Shown one piece after another: positions 1-59,090 of a stretch of 64,000 nucleotides of DNA. The stretch lies in contig NC_086097.1 in assembly GCF_963921235.1 (NCBI RefSeq), positions 175,462,001 to 175,526,000 on the forward strand, written 5' to 3'. Numbering within the stretch: position 1 is the first letter of the stretch; each line of letters begins with the position of its first letter. The translations under genes and the position numbers were made by a program. A model generated the notes under the pieces. It ran no database searches, was not told where the DNA came from, and was given only the letters and a program-made list of their open reading frames with translations. The DNA comes from Mobula hypostoma (lineage: Eukaryota).

Positions 1-388
1 GTGGGAAATGGAGGAGATGCGGGTGAGGGCATCATTGATGACAGCAGAAGGGAAACCACGATTCCTAAAGAAAGAGGACATTTGAGATGTCCTGGAACGG
101 AAAGCCTCATCCTGGGAGCAGATGCGGCGGAGACAGAGGAACTGGGAATAGGGAATGGCAATTTTGCATGTGGCTGGACGGGAAGAGGTATAGTTGAGGT
201 AGTTATGAGAGTCAGTGGGCTTGTAGAAGATGTCCGTGGACAGTTTGTCTCCAGAGATGGAGACCGAGAGATTGAGAAAGGGGAGAGAAGTGTCTGAGAT
301 GGACCAAGTGAATTTGAGGGCTGGGTGGAATTTAGAAGTAAAGACGATGAAATTGATGAGCTCAGCAAGAAGTAAAGTCGATGAAATT
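1..388 (-). mobile_element. Penelope-like retroelement RT fragment (runs off window start)
   Basis: Reverse complement resembles the RT C-terminal region of the PLE at ~3320-3690 (AIPYSQFLCLRRICSQDEAFRSRTSQMSSFFRNRGFPS-like). Confidence 0.85.
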
Positions 389-2714: not shown

Positions 2715-4761
2715 AGGGGATCTCCCATCCACTGCTACCAACCTTATAGTTCCCACACCTCGCACGTCCCGTTTCTACCTCCTACCCAAGATCCACAAAC
2801 CTGCCTGTCCTGGCAGACCTATTGTCTCAGCTTGCTCCTGCCCCACCAAACTCGTTTCTGCATACCTCGACACGGTTTTATCCCCCATTGTTCAATCCCT
2901 TCCTACCTATGTTCGTGACACTTCTCACGCTCTTAAACTTTTCGATGATGTTAAGTTCTCTGGCCCCCACCGCTTTATTTTCACCATGGATGTCCAGTCC
3001 CTATATACTTCCATCCCCCATCAGGAAGATCTCAAAGCTCTCCGCTTCTTTTTGGATTCCAGACCCAATCAGTTCCCCTCTACCACCACTCTGCTCCGTC
3101 TAGTGGAATTAGTCCTTACTCTTAATAATTTCTCCTTTGGCTCCTCCCACTTCCTCCAAACTAAAGGTATAGCTATGGGCACCCGTATGGGTCCTAGCTA
3201 TGACTGCCTTTTTGTTGGCTTTGTGGAACAATCTATGCTCCGTGCCTATTCTGGTATCTGTCCCCCACTTTTCCTTCGTTACATCGATGACTGCATTGGC
3301 GCTGCTTCCTGCACGCATGCTGAGCTCGTTGACTTTATTAACTTTGCCTCAAACTTTCACCCTGCCTTTAAGTTTACCCGGTCCATTTCTGACACCGCCC
3401 TCCCCTTTCTAGATCTTTCTGTCTCTGTCTCTGGAGACAGGTTATCCACTGATGTCTACTATAAGTTTACTGACTCTCACAGCTATCTGGACTATTCCTC
3501 TTCTCACCCTGTCTCTTGCAAAAATGCCATCCCCTTCTCGCAATTCCTCCGTCTCTGCCACATCTGCTCTCAGGATGAGACTTTTCATTCCAGGACAAGG
3601 GAGATGTCCTCCTTTTTTAAAGGAAGGGGCTTCCCTTCCTCCACCATCAACTCTGCTCTCAAACGCATCTCCCCCATTTCACGCACATCTGCTCTCACCC
3701 CATCCTCCCGCCACCCCAATAGGAATAGGATTCCCCTGGTCCTCATCTACCACCCCACCAGCCTCCGGGTCCAACATAATTCTCCGTAACTTCTGCCACC
3801 TCCAACGGGATCCCACCACTAAGCACATCTTTCCCTCCCCCCCCTGCTTTTCACAGGGATTGCTCCCTACACGACTCCCTTGTCCATTCGTCTCCCCCAT
3901 CCCTCCACACTGATCTCCCTCCTGGCACTTATCCTTGTAAGCGGAACAAGTGCTACACCTTCCCTTACACTTCCTCCCTTACCACCATTCAGGGCCCTAG
4001 ACAGTCCTTCCAGGTGAGGCAACACTTCACCTGTGGGTCGGCTGGGGTCATATACTGCATCCGGTGCTCCCGATGTGGCCTTTTATATATTGGTGAGACC
4101 CGACGCAGACTGGGAGACCGCTTTGCTGAACACCTACGCTCTGTCCGCCAGACAAAGCAGGATCTCCCAGTGGCCACACATTTTAATTCCACATCCCATT
4201 CCCATTCTGACATGTCTATCCACGGCCTCCTCTACTGTAAAGATGAAACCACACTCAGGTTGGAGGAACAACACCTTATATTCCGTCTGGGTAGCCTCCA
4301 ACCTGATGACATGAACATCGACTTTTCCAACTTCCGCTAATGCCCCACCTCCCCCTCATACCCCATCCATTATTCATTTATATACACATTCTTTCTCTCA
4401 TTCTCCTTTTTCTCCCTCTGTCCCTCTGACTATACCCCTTGCCCATCCTCTGGTTTCCCCCCCTTGTCTTTCTCCCCGGACCTCCTGTCCCATGAGCCTC
4501 TCATATCCCCTTTGCCAATCATCTGTCCAGCTCTTGGCTCCATCCCTCCCCCTCCTGTCTTCTCCTATCATTTTGGATCTCCCTGTCCCCCTCCCACTCT
4601 CAAATCTCTTACTAACTCTTCCTTCAGTTAGTCCTGATGAAGGGTCTCGGCCTGAAACGTCGACTGTACCTCTTCCTAGAGATGCTGCCTGGCCTGCTGC
4701 GTTCACCAGCAACTTTGATGTGTGTTGCTTGAATTTCCAGCATCTGCAGAATTCCTGTTGT
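2715..4761 (+). mobile_element. 5'-truncated Penelope-like element: reverse transcriptase plus GIY-YIG endonuclease, frameshifted
   Basis: ORF 2986-3789 has RT motifs (MDVQSLYTSIPH, GIAMGTRMGPSY, RYIDD, FLDL). ORF 4014-4340 has a GIY-YIG motif (VIYCIRCSRCGLLYIGETRRRLGDRFAEH). Near-identical flanks TGTTCTGCA(C/T)TC at 2703-2714 and 4759-4770; the element splits an older LINE 3' tail (2575-2714 / 4762-4885). Confidence 0.95.
4629..4666 (+). ncRNA. Minimal type I hammerhead ribozyme motif in PLE 3' region
   Basis: TAGTC-CTGATGA(4634-4640)-A-GGGT-CTCG-GCCT-GAAA(4654-4657)-CG-TC-GACTG; GUC cleavage triplet and palindromic ACGT stem III. Confidence 0.75.
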
Positions 4762-5040
4762 TCTGCATTCTATTATTGTTTTTCCGATGTACAGTGTGAT
4801 GAATTGGTCTGTATGAACAGTATGCAATACATGATTTTCACTGTACCTCGGTACATCTGACAATAATAAACTAATTCACCAATTTACAGGCAAGGAGTAG
4901 AATTGGATGAATAATGATGAGAAGCTTCTAATTTTATTATTTTGAACATTGAAATATTAGGTTACCATTTGACTTGAGAGGAGGAAAGAAGTTTTACTTT
5001 GGATTTCCATAATTACTGTATCCTTTCTGTTCATTTCCAG

Positions 5041-9078: not shown

Positions 9079-11025
9079 TCCTACAGTGTGGTGACCAGAC
9101 TTACCTCTCTCTCAACTTGCTGTATTTGATTATGCTGCTTTGGAAAAGCAAACAACATAAATACCGCATCCATCCCAGACATCGTTTCTTCTACCTTCCT
9201 CCCCCTCAGAGGGCAGAAGATATAACAGCCTGAAAGCACAAACCACAAGGCCCAAGAACAGCTTCTGTCCTCCTGTTATAAGATTATTAAACTGAGTTAT
9301 TTTATGATGAAATAGACTTGACCTCACAGTCTACCTTGCACGTTATTGTCTGTCTGCACTGCTCTTTCTCTGTAACTGAAAACACTTTTTTTCTGCATTC
9401 TCTTATTGCTTTTGCTTTTTTCCACCCCAATACACTGATGTGATGAAACGATCTGGATGGATGGCATGCAAAACAAAGTTTTTTCACTGAACTTTGGTGC
9501 GTGTGACATTAATAAACCAATTTACCAATTTATCAATTCCACATTACCTCCATGGGATAAGATTTTATCCATCCTATCTATGCTTCACATAATGTTATAA
9601 AATTCATCAGATCACCCTTCACAGCCACCATTCCAGAGAAAACAATCCAGGTTTGTCCAAATAACCTTGTAGACAATGCTCTCTAATCTCGGCAGCATCC
9701 TGTTGATCCTTGTCTCACCCTCTCTGAAGACTCCATATCCTTCTGTAAATGGGCACCCAGAACTACAGATAATTCTCCTAGTGTGACTGAATTAATATTT
9801 TATCCAGTTTCAACATGACTTCACAAATTTTATACAGTTTTCTGACCAATGAAGGCAGCCATGTTTCTGTAATGGCAATGAACTCATCCCGAATTCCGCA
9901 CTGTTTCTGCCATTGATTACCCGCCTTGTTGCAGATGCAGCATGCATTTAGTTATGGTAACTTCAGGCTCTTTAGGTTTAATCTTTAAACACTTCCCCAT
10001 ACTCCAGTTCTATTTGCCACATGCCTTTATTTTCACTACCTAATATATTGATAATTACAGTTCTAACTTCCACCCCCAGCCTTATTTCTCTATTTTGTGA
10101 TTCTTCTCTCTGCCTTGCCAATACTTTGATGGCTCTATAGGACATAAAAATGGTATTGTTGCTAGGGAGGAGGGTTGCATGGAGCCCATACTATCAGTTG
10201 GTGAGATGGGTAGAGCATTGGCAAATGGATTATTATCCTGATAAGAATAAATAACTCCTGCAAGAAACTGTAGAGAGTTGTAAACACAGCTCAGGACATC
10301 ACAGAAAGCAGTTTCCCCTCAATGGACTCTGTCTGTACTTCTCGCTGGCTTGGTAAAGTAGCCAACATAATCAAAGAACCACTCACACTGGATATGCTGT
10401 CTTCTCCTCCCTCCCATCAGGCAGACGATACAAATGCCTGAAAGCATGGACCACTAGACTTAAGAACAGCTCCTACTCCACTGTGCCAAAACTCTTGAAC
10501 TGACCTCACATGGAAGTGACCTGAAGTCCTACACCACCAGGTTCAAGAGCAGTTATTTCCCTTGAACCATTCGGTTCCTAAACCAGCCCGCACAACCCTA
10601 ATCATTACCTCAGTATAGCAACACTATGACTACTTTGATTACCTTACACTGCAATAGAATTTGTTTGATTTATTCTAATCATGTTCTATCTGGCATAATT
10701 TTATATAATTTATGTTTGACTTGGGTTTTTCTTGTGAATGTTGTGTATGTGCCTGCTGCAGGTATGTTCATCACTGCATCTGATAGGCTAGGGATGTTTA
10801 AGAGACTCTTAGGTTCATGGATGCAATAAAAATCGAGCGTTATGGGTTGTGTGGGAGGGAAGGGTTAGATTGATCAAGGAGTAGATTTATATCTGTTAAC
10901 ACAACATAATGGGCCAAAGAGCCTGCACTGTGCTCCACCAATCCACATTCTGACAATAAACTGGCAAACAAAAGAGATTCTGCAGAATCTGGGAAATGGC
11001 ATTCTGGCTTTATCCCCTTCCTTCC

Positions 11026-11063
11026 CAGCCCTGATGAAGGGTCTTAGCCCGAAACGTCGACTA
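11026..11063 (+). ncRNA. Minimal hammerhead motif in a short non-autonomous PLE-tail copy
   Basis: CAGCC-CTGATGA-A-GGGT-CTTA-GCCC-GAAA-CG-TC-GACTA; core intact, stem I has mismatches. Confidence 0.6.
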
Positions 11064-11429
11064 CATAAATGCTGCTTAACTTGCTGAATTCCTCCAACAA
11101 TTTGTGTCTGTACATTTGTGGAAATTCACAAGAGTCTTCGGTAACAGGCCAAATTCTCTCAAACTCCTAATGAAATGTAGATACTGACATGCCTTCCTTG
11201 TAATTTCATCAGTATGTTGGGCCCAGGGTATGTCAACACCCAGGAGTTTGAAAGAACTACATGTATTTGACTATCTGTAGCTGTCACACTACATTCTGAA
11301 CACAGGAGATTCTACAGGTGCAGCACACACAAAAATGCTGGAGGAACTCAGCAAGTTGGGCATCATCTATGGAGGAGAATACAGCATTGACTTTTCAGAC
11401 TGAGAATGTTCATCAGGATTGGAAAGGAT

Positions 11430-12170: not shown

Positions 12171-12699
12171 CTAAGTTTTATATGCAAACAAGAGAAATTC
12201 TGCAGATGCTGGAAATCCAAGCAATACACACAAAATGCTAGAGGAACTCAGCAGGGCAGGCAGCATCTATAGAAAAGAGTAAACAGTCAATGCTTCAGGC
12301 TGAAACTTCTTCCCATAGGTGCTGCCTGGCCTGCTGAGTTCCTCCACCATTTTGTGTGTATTGCTCATCTCTATATACATTATATGGTTATATACATGGT
12401 TAAATGAAGATATGGTGAAATGAGAATAAACTTGACTGAACTTGACTTGAGTTGAAGGAGGCAGAAGTTAGAAGCCACAACCGAGTGGTTAAGGGGATAT
12501 GCCAGAAACACTACATTCTGAATTCTGAATTCCCTTTGTACTACATTGATGTGTAGAATTTTCTGTCTGGACGACATGCAAAAAGTTATCTCCGTATCTT
12601 GGTACAAACGACAATAATAAAATTCCAATTAAATGACAAGGCATAGAAAACTGCAGACCAGATGGTATGTACGGTCGTATATTGATGATAGCCAGAACC

Positions 12700-29430: not shown

Positions 29431-30488
29431 ATCTTTAAAAACTGGCTTTAGTGGAGGACATTAGTGCTTTTGGAGTTTGTATTGTGCTACCTGTGTGTGG
29501 TCTATGTCCAACCCTCTTATTTGTAATGTTCATTTTGAGTGTTTGGCCTGTCTGTGAATTATTTTTTCCCAACTCTAATGGCAGTTAATATTTTAAACCA
29601 ATGACCTCCATTTTCTCCTTAGATGCTGCTCAACTGGCTGATAGTTTATAGCATTTTGTTTCCCTTTTATAGTAGCATCTTTCTGTGAAATGAGGAATGG
29701 TGATGCTATTGACTTTTCAGCAGAACAGAGTATTTGTTGAAACTTTGCCAGAGGGGATAATTATTCTCAGTTGATTTTGTATCCTGTGTATTTTGAGCTA
29801 GCCCAATAGTGAGCCATTTAAAACATTTAGACTTGTTGTAATTGTTAGCCAAGCTGTGTGGTTGCTTCAGTCAATTCTTTGTAATGCCTTACTGACCATG
29901 TGAAGCTGAAAAATAATTTCACAAGATGGTGGGGTTTTGAAAGTATTCTGCCTCGTGGTAAAAAGTGGAACGCTTATGTCTCAGGTGATTTGCCAAAGCC
30001 AACAAAACTTTTGTGGTTGTATACGGCAAAGTACATTGATGTTTCCATTAGAAAATACTGGTCTGTGTGGAAACAAACTTGGTTAATTTTATGATTCAGT
30101 GACTCTAAATTATGCTTGCAGTTAGTTTCAGCAGAATAGTAATCAAATCTATCTGTTCTATGCAAGGACACCAATTAGAAGATGATGTAAGCAACACAAA
30201 ATGCTAGAGGGACTCAGCAGGCCAGCCAGCATCTATGGAAAAGAGTGAACAGTTGACATTTCAGGCTGAGACCCATCATATATGTTTCTTAGATTTCAGC
30301 ATCAGCCGATTATCTCTTGTTTGAGAAGATGTATATTTGTTTCTGTTCTCATGTGGTCATTTGGACAGAAAAAATAATTTTCCAGACAGAAGAATTACAT
30401 ATGTATTACAAATATAATTCAGATTTGTATTGAATTTGTATCTTAAATAATTTGTATCTAAATTATTTAAATATTTGAATTCTGACTG

Positions 30489-31418
30489 TGTCATAGGGTG
30501 GTGGCTAGGAATGGACCCAAGTGCAAGACACAGGCACTGAAGTACTAGGGACAGGACTAGGATACAGGGTGAGGGCTAGGACATGGACACGAATACCGGG
30601 AACCCGGAACAGGACAGGACAAGAGAGCTAGGAGCCAGGGCTTGGACTCTGAGCCAGAGACTGGACAAGGACCCAGAACCTGGGTCTTGCCTCTGACTCG
30701 GACCCCAGAACTAGGCAAGGACGTGACTTGGCAGGCAGGACGAGGCTGGGGTCTTCAGGCTTGAGACTTGAGGTGAGGCTTGGCTAGAGACTTGAGGCTT
30801 GGGGTCTTGAAGCTTGGCTTGGGGCGCGGCTCGAGGCTTGGGGTCTTGAAGCTCCTCCTGGGCAGGGCGCGGATCTCCACCCGACGGAGGCAAGGGACAG
30901 GAAAGGGCAAAACCAACCGTAGGGTAACGGCAAGATGGCCTGGCTTACCTGACGGAGGCAAGGGACAGGAAAGGGCAAAACCAACCGTAGGGTAACGGCA
31001 AGATGGCCTGGCTTACCTGACGGAGGCAAGGGACAGGAAGGGACAGAACCAACGCAGGGTAATGGCAAGATGGCTTGACTTACCCGGTGGAGGCAAGGGA
31101 CAGGAAGGGAGCTAGGTACAGGGTGGCTCCAAGACAAGACTTCAGGCGAGACGAGGCGCGAGTTACCGGCAAGACGTGGCAAGGCTTCAGGTGCGGAAAT
31201 AGAAGGCAGGGGAAGGGATACAAGGAGTAAGGACAAGATCAATCCAGCAGCCACGCCCTGGTCTCTGGAGGTATTTATGTACCCAGCCCCAATGAGAATC
31301 AGCTGCCTCAATTAGTGCTCAACAGGAACAGAAACAGGGTGGACAGGAAAACCTGGAGCAAGGGTTGATGGACCGGACTGTGAACCGGAATGCGGACTTC
31401 ATGGACCAGACCATGGCA
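30489..31418 (-). mobile_element. Solo LTR (probably Gypsy-type) with internal 68-bp tandem repeats
   Basis: TG...CA termini (TGTCAT...ATGGCA); perfect 5-bp TSD GACTG at 30484-30488 and 31419-31423. About 3.5 copies of a 68-bp unit from 30883. TATA-like CATAAATA on the minus strand near 31272-31279. Confidence 0.8.
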
Positions 31419-45993: not shown

Positions 45994-46091
45994 TTAGATT
46001 CTGCAGAGAATAGCTTGAATTGTACTGTTTTTGGAAATTTTATTAGATTCTGCAGAGAATAGCTTGAATTGTACTGTTTTTGGAAATTTTA
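45994..46091. repeat. Perfect 49-bp tandem duplication
   Basis: TTAGATTCTGCAGAGAATAGCTTGAATTGTACTGTTTTTGGAAATTTTA twice (45994-46042, 46043-46091). Confidence 0.95.
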
Positions 46092-51348: not shown

Positions 51349-52571
51349 TGTGGGGACAGAGGGGAGATATTTGAAATCAATGGGGGAGGAGGAGGCTTGC
51401 ATGGATGATAAATGTTGATATTGACCATCTGTGCTGGTCTTTTTCTGTATTGTCAATCCTACTTGAACTTTTAAACTTTTCATAATTTTCTTTTATACAG
51501 CCATGCTTTTCCTGATGACCACAGTAGCTTAAAAAGGAGCATGCACTCAGATGGATGTAGTACATGTGTAGTTACTGCATATTGGAGGGATGGATGGGAA
51601 AGTAGGTCGTGTAGAAATTGCCCACAGCATTCAGGTAATGCTGTGAAAGGCAATGTGCAGTTTTGATGTCCGCTTGCTGGATTGTCTGGAAATTGCTTGA
51701 GAATAGGTAGTTGGTATTTGGGACTGAATAGAAGAAATACTACTTTTGGGAGATTTGGGAGTTTGTAAATTATTGAAATTTGTTGGCAAAGAGGCCTATA
51801 GGTGCTCAAGTCATAGTTTATTTAAACCTAAGGTCAAGTTTTTGAACACTGATTTATGGTGATCAAGCAGGAAGTTGGGGTTAAGTCAAGATGCTGCTGA
51901 ATGGTAGAGGAGAACGAGGGCTGTATGGGCTATTATTTATTAATAATGTTAGCTTCCAGGCATACTGGAATTTCCTAATGTGCTTCAGATTGTTCTAAGA
52001 GACAAGTGTGATAAATCCTGTGATCTAGTCCTTTGTTTCCTCAAATAGAAAATAATTCTATCAAGCAGTCAATTTGTCATATTTTAGTTTCTACAGTGCC
52101 TGAGGATATTTCAGTGACTCATTTAAAGTGCCTATAAAGCATGTCGAGACACTTCTACGTCAACGTCACAGTAAATGTAGATGTAGTTGAATGCGGAAGA
52201 TGATGTCCACAATGCTGGTGTTGCACATGGAGGAAATCTTTTTCATAACCATTGTTTTTAATGGTTTCAGTTTACTTTTGAGTAGAATCTTAAAGTTTGA
52301 TCATTTATTTGAATATTGTGTTTTGGTCTAAATGATGTTATTTATGAATGTCCATTCAACCACCAAAGTATCTTAGAAGATGATATCAAACAAAAAGTTG
52401 ACATTGTGATGTACAGGGTGATACTTGGAGATGTTCAAAACTTTGATCAAAGAATTGTTTTGAGAAGTGCCTTAACAGATGGGGGAGATGCTTAAAAAAA
52501 ACTAAGGTTTAGACACACATAAAATTTGCTGGTGAACGCAGCAGGCCAGGCGGCATCTTTAGGAAGAGGTG

Positions 52572-52609
52572 CAGTCGATGTTTCAGGCTGAGACCCTTCG
52601 TCAGGACTA
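52572..52609 (-). ncRNA. Minimal hammerhead motif (left PLE arm)
   Basis: Reverse complement TAGTC-CTGACGA-A-GGGTCTCAGCCT-GAAA-CA-TC-GACTG. Confidence 0.6.
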
Positions 52610-53330
52610 ACTGAAGGAAGAGTGAGTAAGGGATTTGAAAGTTGGAGGGGGAGGGGGAGATCCAAAATGATAGGAGAAGACAGGAGGGGGAGGGATGGAG
52701 CCAAGAGCTGGACAGGTGATAGGCAAAAGGGATACGAGAGGATCATGGGACAGGAGGTCCGGGAAGAAAGACAAGGTGGGGGGGGGGACCCAGAGGATGG
52801 GCAAGGGGTATATTCAGAGGGACAGAGGGAGAAAAAGGAGAGTGAGGGAAAGAATGTGTGTATAAAAATAAGTAACAGATGGGGTACGAGGGGGAGGTGG
52901 GGCATTAGCGGAAGTTAGAGAAGTCGATGTTCATGCCATCAGGTTGGAGGCTACCCAGACGGAATAGAAGGTGTTGTTCCTCCAACCTGAGTGGGGCTTC
53001 ATCTTTACAGTAGAGGAGGCTGTGGATAGACATGTCAGAATGAGAATGGGATGTGGAATTAAAATGTGTGGCCACTAGGAGATCCTGCTTTCTCTGGCGG
53101 ACAGAGCGTAGGTGTTCAGCAAAGCGGTCTCCCAGTCTGCGTCGGGTCTCGCCAATATATAAAAGACCACATCGGGAGCAGCGGACGCAGTATATCACCC
53201 CAGCCGACTCACAGGTGAAGTGTCGCCTCACCTGGAAGGACTGTTTGGGGCCCTGAATGGTGGTAAGGGAGGAAGTGTAAGGGCATGTGTAGCACTTGTT
53301 CCGCTTACACGGATAAGTGCCAGGAGGGAG

Positions 53331-53656
53331 ATCAGTGGGGAGGGATGGGGGGGGACAAATGGACAAGGGAGTATCAGTGGGGAGGGATGGGGGGGATGAA
53401 AGGACAAGGGAGTATCAGTGGGGAGGGATGGGGGGGATGAATGGACAAGGGAGTATCAGTGGGGAGGGATGGGGGGGACGAATGGACAAGGGAGTATCAG
53501 TGGGGAGGGATGGAGGGGACGAATGGACAAGGGAGTATCAGTGGGGAGGGATGGGGGGGACGAATGGACAAGGGAGTATCAGTGGGGAGGGATGGGGGGG
53601 ACGAATAGACAAGGGAGTATCAGTGGGGAGGGATGGGGGGGTGAATGGACAAGGGA
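53331..53656. repeat. G-rich tandem array, 8 x ~41 bp, derived from PLE internal sequence
   Basis: Unit ATCAGTGGGGAGGGATGGGGGGGACGAATGGACAAGGGAGT starts at 53331, 53373, 53414, 53455, 53496, 53537, 53578, 53619. It is the reverse complement of the PLE segment at ~3874-3914 and 53660-53700. Confidence 0.95.
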
Positions 53657-54421
53657 CAAACTCCCTTGTCCATTCGTTCCTCCCATCCCTCCCCACTGAT
53701 CTCCCTCCTGGCACTTATCTGTGTAAGCAGAACAAGTGCTACACATGCCCTTACACTTCCTCCCTTACCACCATTCAGGGCCCCAAACAGTCCTTCCAGG
53801 TGAGGCGACACTTTACCTGTGAGTCGGCTGGGGTGATATACTGCGTCCGGTGCTCCCGATGTGGCCTTTTATATATTGGCGAGACCCGACACAGACTGGG
53901 AGACCGCTTTGCTGAACACCTACGCTCTGTCCGCCAGAGAACGCAGGATCTCCCAGTGGCCACACATTTTAATTCCATGTCTCATTCCCATTCTGACATG
54001 TCTATCCACGGCCTCCTCTACTGTAAAGATGAAGCCCCACTCAGGTTGGAGGAACAACACCTTCTGTTCCGTCTGGGTAGCCTCCAACCTGATGGCATGA
54101 ACATCGACTTCTCTAACTTCCGCTAATGCCCCACCTCCCCCTCGTACCCCATCTGTTACTTATTTTTATACACACATTCTTTCCCTCACTCTCCTTTTTC
54201 TCCCTCTGTCCCTCTGAATATACCCCTTGCCCATCCTCAGGGTCCCCCCCCCCACCTTGTCTTTCTTCCCGGACCTCCTGTCCCATGATCCTCTCGTATC
54301 CCTTTTGCCTATCACCTGTCCAGCTCTTGGCTCCATCCCTCCCCCTCCTGTCTTCTCCTATCATTTTGGATCTCCCCCTCCCCCTCCAAGTTTCAAATCC
54401 CTTACTCACTCTTCCTTCAGT

Positions 54422-54459
54422 TAGTCCTGACGAAGGGTCTCGGCCTGAAATGTCGACTG
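54422..54459 (+). ncRNA. Minimal hammerhead motif (right PLE arm)
   Basis: TAGTC-CTGACGA-A-GGGT-CTCG-GCCT-GAAA-TG-TC-GACTG. Confidence 0.62.
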
Positions 54460-55279
54460 CACCTCTTCCTAGAGATGCTGCCTGGCCTGCTGTGTTCACC
54501 AGCAACTTTTATGTGTGTTGCTTGAATTTCCAGCATCTGCAGAATTCCTGTTGTTAAGGTTTAGACAAGGACTTTGAGTTTATTTTCAGCTTCCAAGGCT
54601 GATCTGATCATCTGAGAAGTGATTAAATCTGGAGATGGTCAAGATACTTTAATTTGAGGACCGGAGTTGTGTTATAGGACTGGACAAGATGAGAGCTATT
54701 ACAGGTGTCGTGGTTTCTCGTTTCTCACAAACGACAAGGAGATGCAGAAAACTCGTCAAGACGTTTTAAACTTTACTTTGCAAATCAAAGCTGAGACAAT
54801 CAGAAAGCTAGTAGCTGACTGCCCATCGAGGCTTGTATACAGCATTTTTTATAGCAATTTCCTATCTTAGCTACATTATCATATCCAGTCGGCCTGTGAT
54901 TACATATCATCAATATATCCGCTCTCGACTTTCCACTATTATTTTACTCCCCAACTTAATTATGTCCTAGTTTACATTTTAGACCATATGTCCTCTCATC
55001 CCTAACCACAGTTATTTCTTAATTAGTCTTGCGTTGACATACTGCCACATATTTCGTCACCTTACTCGCCACCGTTATCTTTCTACTTGGTTTCATTCTA
55101 GTTCTCTTCAGGAATTAATAGTGAACAGGTAAAAGTCATGGCTACATAGTGAATACCTTCTATTCAGCTAGCGGTGGTTACATAGTAAATATAGAAAATA
55201 CAATGTGTGCATTTGAGTAAATACTGTTAAGTAAATACTGCTGTAATACATAGAATATACAATGCATGCGTTTGCGTTT

Positions 55280-56899: not shown

Positions 56900-57751
56900 A
56901 TACTGCTTTGACATTGACTGGAATGTCTTCCATGATGAGGATGTCTGAGTTCACGAATGGGGTCAGAAGTTTCATCCAGAAGAGTATCTAGGATGTTGTC
57001 CCCCAGAGATTGGTCAGGGTCTATTCAAACCAGAAACCCCAAAGCAACAATTCCGTGCAAGAAGCAGTTATTGTGCGACACAGAGATTATGTTGCCGGTA
57101 ATTAGCAGGAGCTCAAGAAATGCAGCAACGATCTACGCAAAGTCATCAAGGTGGTGAAACAATAATACAGGGACAAGATCCATACACAACTCTCTACCAA
57201 CAACACATGCAGTTTATGGCAAGGTCTGCACACCATCGCCGACTTCAAAGCTAAACACAGTGGAGTTTCCAACATCACTACCTCTCTCCCAGACGAGCTA
57301 AATCTTTTTTGCGCTCGAATCAATGTCGCCAATACTGAGCCCCAAAGGAGACCTGCAGATGATGCGACCGGCAGCTTGGTCATTTATGAGGCCGAAGTAT
57401 GAATGTTTTTCCACTGATGGACAGTCACAAGGCTGTGGGACCAGACATCATCCCAGGCTGGGTACTCGGGATGTGCGTGGCGCAACTGGCAGGTGTATTT
57501 ACAGACACTTTTAATCTCTCCTTCTCCCAGTGTAGAGTGCTCTCCTGCTTCAAAACATCCACCATTGTTCCGGTACCTAAAAAGACTAAGGTAACATGTC
57601 TGAACGACTGGTGTCCTGTCACACTCACCTCAATAATAAGCAAATGCTTTGAGAGATTGGTTAAGGACCTCATCTGCAGCATGCTGCCACCCACACTGGA
57701 CCCCCTACAATTTGCCTACTGACAAAATCAATTAACAGATGATGCAATAGC
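56900..57751 (+). mobile_element. Rex1/Babar LINE internal fragment
   Basis: KAVGPDIIPGWVL..CVAQLAGVFTDTFNLS..KKTKVTCLNDWCPVTLTSIISKCFERLV..LDPLQFAY. Confidence 0.85.
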
Positions 57752-59090
57752 CAGAACTGTCCCAGAGCCTGTTGGTCCTGGCTTTTGTGCTGCGGTACCG
57801 TTTCCTGGATGATAGCTGGAACAGTTTGTGGTTGGGGTGACTCTGGTCCCAAATGATCCTTCGGGCCCTTTTTTTTTTACACACCTGTCTTTGTAAATGT
57901 TCTGAATAGTGGGAAGTTCACATCTACAGTTGCACAGGGCTGTCCGCACCACTCTCTGCAGAGTCCTGCGATTGAGGGAATTACAGTTCCCATACCAGGC
58001 AGTGATGCAGCCAGTCAGGATGCTCTCAATTGTGCCCCTGTAGAAAGTTCTTAGAATTTGGGGGCCCATACCAAACTTCAACTGTCTGGGGTGAAAGAGG
58101 CGCTGTGGTGCCTTTTTCACCACACGGCCAGTACGTACAGACCACGTGAGATCCTCGGTGATGTTTATGCCGAGGAACTTAAAGCTGTTCACCCTCTCAA
58201 CCCCAGATTCATTGATGTCAACGGGTTAGCCTGTCTCCATTCCTCCTGTAGTCCACAACCAGCTGCTTTGTTTTTGCTTTGTTTTTGTGACATTGAGGAA
58301 GAGGTTGTTTTCTTGACACCACTATGTCAGGGTGATGACATCATCTCTGTGAGCTGCCTCATTATTATTTGAGATTAGGCCAATCAATGTAGTGTTGTCA
58401 GCAAATTTAATTAGCAGATTGGAGCTGTGGGTGACGACACAGATATGGGTATACAGAGGGTAAAGGAGGGGGCTTAGGGCACAGTCTTGAGCTACACCTG
58501 TGAGGGTCAGAGGGGCAGAGGTGAGAGAGCCCACTCTTGCCACCTGCTGGCGATCTGACAGGTATCCGGGATCCAGCTACACAAGGCAGGGTGAAGGCCG
58601 AGGTCTCTGAGGTTCTTGTCGAGGCTGGAGGGAATTATGGTGTTGAATGCTGAACTGTAGTCCAAGAACAGCATTCTTACATAAGCATCCTTCTCCAGAT
58701 GTGTAAGGATGGTGTGTATAGTTGTGGCTACTGCGTCATCTGTCGATCAGTTGTGTCGGTGGGTGAATTGTAGGGGGTCCAGTGTGGGTGGCAGCATGCT
58801 GCAGATGTAGTCCTTAACCAACCTCTCAAAGCATTTGCTTATTATTGAGGTGAGTGTGACAGGACACCAGTCATTCAGACATGTTACCTTGGTCTTTTTG
58901 GGTACAGGAACAATGGTGATGTTTTGAAGCAGGAAGGCACTCTACACTGGGAGAGGCAGAGATTAAAAATGTCTGTAAACACACCTGCCAGTTGTGCTGC
59001 ACACACTCCAAGTACCCGCCCTGGGATGCCATCTAGTCCCGCAGCTTTGCGACTGTCCACTCGTTGTAAACACCTGCGTACTTTGGACAA
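57752..59090 (-). mobile_element. Rex1/Babar LINE, opposite orientation, same family as 56900-57751 and 19258-20172
   Basis: KAAGLDGIPGRVL, KFADNTTLIGLISNNNEAA, SFKFLGINITEDLTWS, FYRGTIESILTGCITAWYGN. Confidence 0.88.

Follow-up and report, generated by a model that had tools for sequence, protein, structure and literature searches.

A tandem array of template-end repeats at the centre of a head-to-head Penelope-like insertion and its possible origin by reiterative reverse transcription

A G-rich segment of 41 nt is repeated in eight tandem units at the centre of a Penelope-like insertion in the window (the whole stretch of 64,000 nt of Mobula hypostoma DNA analysed here). The array is a novel variation on the known two-armed form of such insertions, and its mechanism lies among three readings. 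Whatever the enzyme, it was very probably born at or shortly after integration. To judge from the letters of the locus, the array may have been written during integration by the reverse transcriptase (RT) of the element, working on RNA and repeatedly slipping back to copy the last 41 bases of its template. This reading is held tentatively; it leads narrowly over a single slip followed by early expansion of a palindrome and over synthesis by a host end-joining polymerase, two rivals that predict nearly the same sequence. The array has no likely function and is probably a scar.

Structure of the Insertion

The whole structure is one insertion, bounded by a 13-bp target-site duplication (Table 1). 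The + strand of the left arm has the polarity of first-strand cDNA, and the right arm holds an intact remnant of the GIY-YIG frame at 53659-54126. Both arms align to a longer, single-armed copy of the family, which served as the reference, from exactly nt 3874, and neither has lost bases at the centre of the insertion. The left arm is 96.9% identical to the right arm and 92.6% identical to the reference copy at 3874-4725. Outside the unit, the arms differ at 23 of 818 sites (15 of 766 non-CpG and 8 of 52 CpG), and 45 of 853 columns carry differences from the reference copy that are common to both. At three positions, among the 28 listed, both arms carry a letter where 93-99% of the summed family depth differs; summed contig depth is a rough guide only, and no copy number was taken from it. 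With these three rare letters in common, both arms derive from one source. Contig ends of the family pile up at 52513, 54549, and 54555, and the 3' starts of the arms are two family 3' end points. One source, 3' starts that differ, and a shared 5' stop suggest that both target strands primed synthesis on one RNA or on identical RNAs. Fold-back synthesis of one arm from the other is disfavoured, because the right arm has 37 nt that are absent from the left, the end of each arm is a family end point, and no sequence able to prime a fold-back matches the linker; it would stay feasible if the longer arm had been the template.

Table 1. Positions of the features discussed, numbered from the first letter of the window
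Feature	Position	Strand	Basis or remark
Left copy of 13-bp target-site duplication, TAAGGTTTAGACA	52503..52515	+	last 3 nt also match the element end
Right copy of target-site duplication, TAAGGTTTAGACA	54555..54567	+	sequence match
Left arm, 3' 860 nt of the Penelope-like element	52513..53372	-	endonuclease region and 3' UTR, no tail
AGGGAG realignment match, 41 nt back from the end	53325..53330	+	identical to unit nt 35-40
Array, eight units	53331..53656	+	TRF and anchor split
CAA linker	53657..53659	+	sequence
Right arm, 896 nt	53660..54555	+	5' start same as left arm; 3' UTR
37-nt tail, right arm only	54519..54555	+	arm comparison
Minimal hammerhead-like motif, left arm	52581..52607	-	pattern match
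Minimal hammerhead-like motif, right arm	54424..54450	+	pattern match
Second head-to-head Penelope-like junction	334..388	+	368-388 re-copies 334-354, 20/21
Reference, longer single-armed family copy (RT, linker, GIY-YIG)	2716..4762	+	Pfam

The assembly was compared with contigs from 4 of 23 runs, including X1 and X2 of organism A and X5 of organism B. Both outer junctions of the insertion are present among the contigs listed from these runs, and none of them runs across the array. The contigs of X1 and X2 have 0 differences over 52000-52541 (left junction), and X2 also has 0 differences over 54535-54732 (right junction). The contig of X5 has five other letters and three gaps over 52000-52541 and extends 26 nt beyond the duplication into the arm; because it crosses the left junction in this way, the insertion predates the split of organisms A and B. 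The listed contig of X6 ends at 52501. The best-matching run may derive from the source sample. Sequences of the wider family outnumber those of the array, with 249,349 records aligned for X1; among the joints listed, one of 53333 to 53554, found in one contig each of X1 and X2 with the intervening letters not known, is likely a family variant and was set aside.

Repeat Units and Their Junctions

TRF reported a period of 41 nt with 8.1 copies, 95% matches, and a score of 592 at 53325-53656, the top score of the 10 TRF rows for the window. Splitting on a fixed anchor gave units of 42 nt, 41 nt (six times), and 38 nt, starting at 53331, 53373, 53414, 53455, 53496, 53537, 53578, and 53619. Unit 1 is the left arm's own terminal 42 nt, units 2-8 are additional copies, and unit 8 is without the final GT. 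The initial annotation had described eight tandem copies at the inversion point and a 3-nt linker before the right arm, and both were borne out; of its seven extra 41-nt copies, six are full, the seventh is only nearly full (38 nt), and the first unit is 42 nt long. The unit is single-copy in the reference copy at 3874-3914, as had been stated, and agrees there with the modal unit at 39/41 positions. The right arm had been said to begin with the exact complement of the unit, and its start is in fact complementary to the modal unit at 39/41. The target duplication, the AGGGAG match beside the unit, and the rare letters common to the arms are additions to that annotation. Units 4 and 6, the only identical pair, represent the modal unit, and six of the eight units have distinguishing changes.

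The G-richness that had been noted, with four G-runs and G-quadruplex potential, was confirmed by four runs of at least three G and a G4Hunter mean of 1.6. The score of the left arm's last 41 nt is reached in just 14 of 820 left-arm windows of 41 nt. This potential is genuine, yet it discriminates between no models. An open frame of 269 codons (53317-54126, + strand) traverses the array, gains ATG codons there, and extends without a frame change into the right arm's GIY-YIG remnant; its passage through the array is probably due to chance.

All full junctions between units read GGGAG-T-ATCAG, and the seven junctions are identical, odd T included. The last base of the unit is the complement (T) of element nt 3874 and, to within one base, the start of the right arm. 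The 6-nt AGGGAG match 41 nt back from the end explains the register of the unit. Of 1897 possible stop points, 192 have a match of at least 6 nt within 15-100 nt, and the AGGGAG match at the exact offset is suggestive, short of overwhelming. Retention of the T would be unexpected from proofread replication slippage on AGGGAG, which predicts a unit of 40 nt. Unit 8 ends two bases early, and seven bases further back in the unit GGA is followed by CAA, suggesting that the linker could be one further short slip, 7 nt back on GGA in unit 8.

RNA folding around the truncation point gave a z-score of -1.6, with no special structure to set the stop. An RNA hairpin at 53709-53741 (z-score of -2.1) lies directly 3' of the realignment match, inside coding sequence, and the 49 nt at the template end have no fold and are unpaired 5' of it. 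This hairpin could limit the distance over which the cDNA pairs back, or be due to chance.

Age of the Array

Compared with the modal unit, and leaving CpG changes aside, unit 1 has gained a G, units 2, 5, and 7 each differ by a single substitution, and unit 8 differs by either one substitution or one deletion; no non-CpG variant is common to more than one of the eight units. Three to four non-CpG substitutions are observed, against 3.0 expected at the arm rate for eight units that all date from the insertion. In the right arm's own unit, 39 sites include 2 non-CpG changes. These two, and the two private changes of unit 1, are all absent from units 2-7, and therefore the copying predates them.

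Growth of the array was simulated with single-unit duplications only, without losses or conversion. The fit to three to four private and no shared changes was 0.40 for all-at-once birth and 0.33 when growth was confined to the first fifth of the time since insertion, compared with 0.08 under steady growth, 0.05 under copy-number-dependent growth, and 0.009 under late growth; with four events, steady or late growth left all variants private in 6-24% of simulations. Birth at or soon after insertion is thus favoured about 5-fold over steady and about 40-fold over late growth, which disfavours to the same degree the later slippage expansion that the initial annotation had named as its alternative, and the simulation cannot separate birth at insertion from birth soon after it. 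The dating models become indistinguishable if the local mutation rate in the array is threefold higher. CpG changes are found in 4 of 8 units versus 8 of 52 sites in the arms (Fisher p 0.04), and one of them is shared by the adjacent units 2 and 3, which may reflect common descent.

Other Joints in the Window

At the second head-to-head junction, an antisense arm from the RT region stops at 367 and a sense arm begins at 388, with no more than 1 nt of homology and an insert of 21 nt in the same direction, equivalent to one partial round. The left arm of this insertion extends off the window edge. A scan of the 64 kb for direct repeats (offset of 15-100, at least 18 nt, at most one mismatch, low-complexity matches filtered) gave six clusters, two of which lie at head-to-head joints. 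About six head-to-head joints were identified by eye, near 367, 870, 10990, 12306, 30280, and 53660, so that a re-copy is present at 2/6 joints; the chance of the second is about 0.01. Slip-back at a head-to-head joint therefore recurs. By its sequence, the joint at 334-388 matches the pattern of polymerase theta as well as it does an RT slip. No re-copy of at least 18 nt was found at the joints of the small two-armed Penelope-like insertions seen by eye at about 863-1360, 10968-11107, 12182-12365, and 30194-30323.

Tandem duplications away from Penelope joints are located at 1749-1840 (30 nt, 3.1 copies), 30777-30853 (39 nt, two copies), 30879-31106 (68 nt, 3.4 copies), and 45994-46091 (49 nt, two copies, 100% matches). 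An inverted repeat pair of 368 nt, 86% alike and 961 nt apart, is located at 57392-57758 and 58720-59086.

Classification of the Element

The reference copy gave a Pfam match to RVT_1 of 30.8 bits (cut-off 29.6), and the reference copy and the right arm gave matches to GIY-YIG of 23.2 and 24.0 bits (cut-off 22.6), all barely above the cut-offs. The order of RT followed by a C-terminal GIY-YIG is that of endonuclease-bearing Penelope-like elements. The translation carries a CCHH motif whose two cysteines lie between GIY and YIG (GVIYCVRCSRCGLLYIG ... EH ... TH), and a CX2-5CxxC linker (here CX4CxxC) upstream of GIY-YIG, which reads CKRNKCYTC in the left arm and CKQNKCYTC in the right arm. According to PMC8557442, in the text available, this linker defines Neptune/Nematis and the CCHH motif defines endonuclease-bearing Penelope-like elements, and the linker definition places the element, by its predicted protein, as Neptune/Nematis-type. 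The insertion shows an inverted truncated copy, a target duplication, and a one-sided tail of 37 nt, within the 30-40 nt of such elements. Near-identical 12-mers at 2704-2715 and 4759-4770 flank the reference copy and are likely a target duplication within another repeat.

The hammerhead-like motifs of both arms match the pattern that we take to be the hammerhead core. No hammerhead is among the 60 Rfam rows, all of which are below the gathering score and hit microRNA models through generic hairpins. Viral and metagenome contigs were also scanned by pattern, with 0 matches, and a PDB sequence search with the RT gave 0 hits. The RT query found 0 viral loci and seven metagenome loci, whose proteins are 22-53% identical and whose DNA does not match the window; six of these seven contain no inverted repeat. 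One metagenome contig encoding a distant RT relative (L007) carries at its end, over 1-462, inverted arrays of an 11-nt unit, which were rejected as a comparable array, being an unrelated simple array.

Origin of the Array

If the element's RT wrote the array, both target nicks would have primed first-strand cDNA on RNA with its 5' end at element nt 3874. The top-strand cDNA would have run off the RNA's 5' end and been released, perhaps aided by G-quadruplex folding or by displacement by the second cDNA; it would then have re-paired via AGGGAG 41 nt back, with the final T unpaired, and been extended anew. As each round restores the starting state, reiteration could repeat. Seven rounds and one short slip (CAA) would have been followed by joining of the cDNA ends with little or no homology, after which the array would have been largely frozen. 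If both arms are first-strand cDNA, RNA was the only sense template before joining; with no sense DNA near the joint at that stage, a repeat in the same direction is most simply copied from RNA, by an enzyme not proofreading the unpaired T. RNA and sense-strand DNA templates predict the same product sequence.

Synthesis by the RT is consistent with the coincidence of the unit end with the 5' end of both arms, the 6-nt match at the exact offset, the retained T, a unit divergence equal to the arm divergence, and the slip-back re-copy at the second junction of the window. Moreover, PMC11167929, in the portion available, reports cleavage and extension of both strands by a purified Penelope protein, whose two start sites bound a tail of 30-40 nt; the 37-nt tail here fits this. 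However, the array is a single locus, early expansion within the first fifth of the insertion's life fits about as well, and the dating loses all power at a threefold array mutation rate; the right arm's own unit carries two non-CpG changes. Every round would have to melt a hybrid of at least 41 bp, and the CpG excess of the units and the CpG change common to units 2 and 3 also count against repeated copying by the RT. The features of the 334-388 junction are those described for polymerase theta (PMC5068794, in part), and the available account of the in vitro reaction in PMC11167929 describes one dominant product and a faint long band, with no mention of a ladder. RT realignment, as proposed in the initial annotation, keeps the tie to the truncation point, the insertion-like age, and the AGGGAG match, whereas G-richness does not separate it from its rivals. 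Seven identical junctions with an odd T would be simplest if made once and then copied, and they are better accounted for by the closest rival, somewhat unlikely in itself, in which one slip-back at integration gave two units that then expanded early, out of register, at an unstable palindrome centre. The young 860-bp perfect palindrome would have broken repeatedly at its centre, its tip staying a tight hairpin (unit 8, a loop of 3-5 nt, and the right arm), and the burst would have ended as the arms diverged. Early growth of this kind fits the variants as well as all-at-once birth and explains the shared CpG change, and a 14-bp perfect hairpin with a 5-nt loop, formed by unit 8 and the right arm, persists at 53643-53675. 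The review PMC8701086, in its available text, reports that a perfect mouse palindrome was rearranged at its centre in about 35% of offspring and cites a paper whose title concerns repeat expansion at palindromes; the same text gives 93% of 118 centre rearrangements as deletions, with spacer inclusion uncommon, whereas here no base is lost from either arm at the centre. Besides, repeats normally grow faster when longer, which predicts the late growth that fitted poorly (0.05).

A host end-joining polymerase of the polymerase theta type, making the repeats on DNA by repeated priming, extension, and release while joining the cDNA ends, is a less likely author. The accessible part of PMC5068794 describes reiterated priming by POLQ from one flank, priming on a single base, and inserts below about 25 nt, a pattern consistent with the 21-nt insert of 368-388 and with the CAA mini-slip. 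Such POLQ products are short, differ in where they begin and end, and contain about one error per 30 nt, whereas the array has seven 41-nt units in exact register with about 1% non-CpG change; an AGGGAG match on the bottom strand would also lose the terminal base that is kept at every junction. It is improbable that the array is an ordinary transposon-derived minisatellite, which arose by duplication between short direct repeats after insertion and then grew gradually. The G-rich unit and the CpG change of units 2 and 3 agree with such growth, and PMC3389668, as far as available, lists 300 of 7,276 human transposon-derived tandem repeats as flanked by direct repeats of 5-20 bp; it leaves unexplained, however, the unit end at the shared truncation base and the extra T, and steady or late growth seldom kept all variants private in the simulations. 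An assembly or read artefact is very improbable: palindromes are difficult to sequence and no listed contig spans the array, but six of the eight units can be told apart and organism A contigs contain both outer junctions. Rolling-circle copying of a 41-nt circle would explain the identical junctions; it was set aside as unsupported.

Significance

Penelope RTs and telomerase (TERT) are sister groups (PMC8557442, in part). It is conceivable, though doubtful, that Penelope RTs retain a latent repeat-addition activity, in which the enzyme at an RNA 5' end would realign on a short match and repeatedly re-add a G-rich segment. If so, copy-rich genomes would preserve, in fossil form, the traces of telomerase-like synthesis, and some minisatellites would arise full-length in a single retrotransposition event. 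If the RT made the scar, the locus provides a template sequence and a predicted 41-nt ladder for the existing in vitro system; if the palindrome or host-repair reading is true, it is a neat yet minor junction variant. Irrespective of which enzyme acted, the locus narrows the possible origins of Penelope head-to-head insertions and is a dated case of a minisatellite arising about when retrotransposition happened.

Comparison with Known Systems

Inverted, 5'-truncated, head-to-head Penelope-like insertions with a target duplication and a one-sided tail of 30-40 nt are described in the available texts of PMC3846280 and PMC8557442. The present insertion shares with them the two arms, the tails outward, the short target duplication, and the one-ended tail. 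In those accounts the joint is an overlap or a short palindrome, whereas here the two arms share one stop base and have between them a 287-nt spacer of repeated template end. None of the listings and passages searched in the literature covered, which took in few subscription papers, describes a multi-copy template-end array at a Penelope joint. PAc (Poseidon, Anolis), as partly described in PMC11167929, cuts and extends both strands from two internal start sites, which explains the differing 3' ends of the arms; by its linker motif it belongs to a different clade, and repeat addition is unmentioned in the available text.

For R2, run-off additions, template jumping, and snap-back at 5' junctions are described in the accessible parts of PMC2718515 and PMC11371274. 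As here, a free cDNA 3' end carries out additional synthesis before the 5' joint is closed; R2, as there described, adds whole templates, inverted copies, and untemplated bases, in contrast to a same-direction, multi-copy 41-nt terminal repeat. Templated insertions of polymerase theta (PMC5068794, in part) likewise involve repeated priming, extension, and release beside a break. They are shorter, irregular, and error-rich (below about 25 nt, with 1-nt priming), features seen in the joint at 368-388 and not in the array. In the minisatellites of Haber and Louis (PMC3389668, in part), for which the Alu-derived cases have a mean copy number of 2.3-2.4, the unit also comes from inside a transposon. 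A direct repeat of 5-10 bp bounds the unit there, and the 6-nt AGGGAG does so here. Gradual growth with shared variants is not seen here (no shared non-CpG change and one shared CpG change, weak evidence from few events), and the array differs in its link to the truncation base and in its age, which is about that of the insertion.

Telomerase copies to a template boundary, realigns on a short internal match, and adds a G-rich repeat, with a unit of about 5-8 nt in most telomerases; some LINEs reiteratively copy short 3' repeats. The array consists of tandem copies of one template segment ending at a fixed boundary, and its unit is 41 nt long. A 6-nt match at the correct offset might act as an alignment region, although the last base would be left unpaired. 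A dedicated structured RNA with a boundary element is missing, the boundary being a chance RNA end; the insertion is internal rather than at a chromosome end, and the array is a one-off scar rather than a maintained function. It is thus not telomerase-type by membership, and, if the RT reading holds, its boundary, realignment, and G-rich repeat resemble telomerase in outline.
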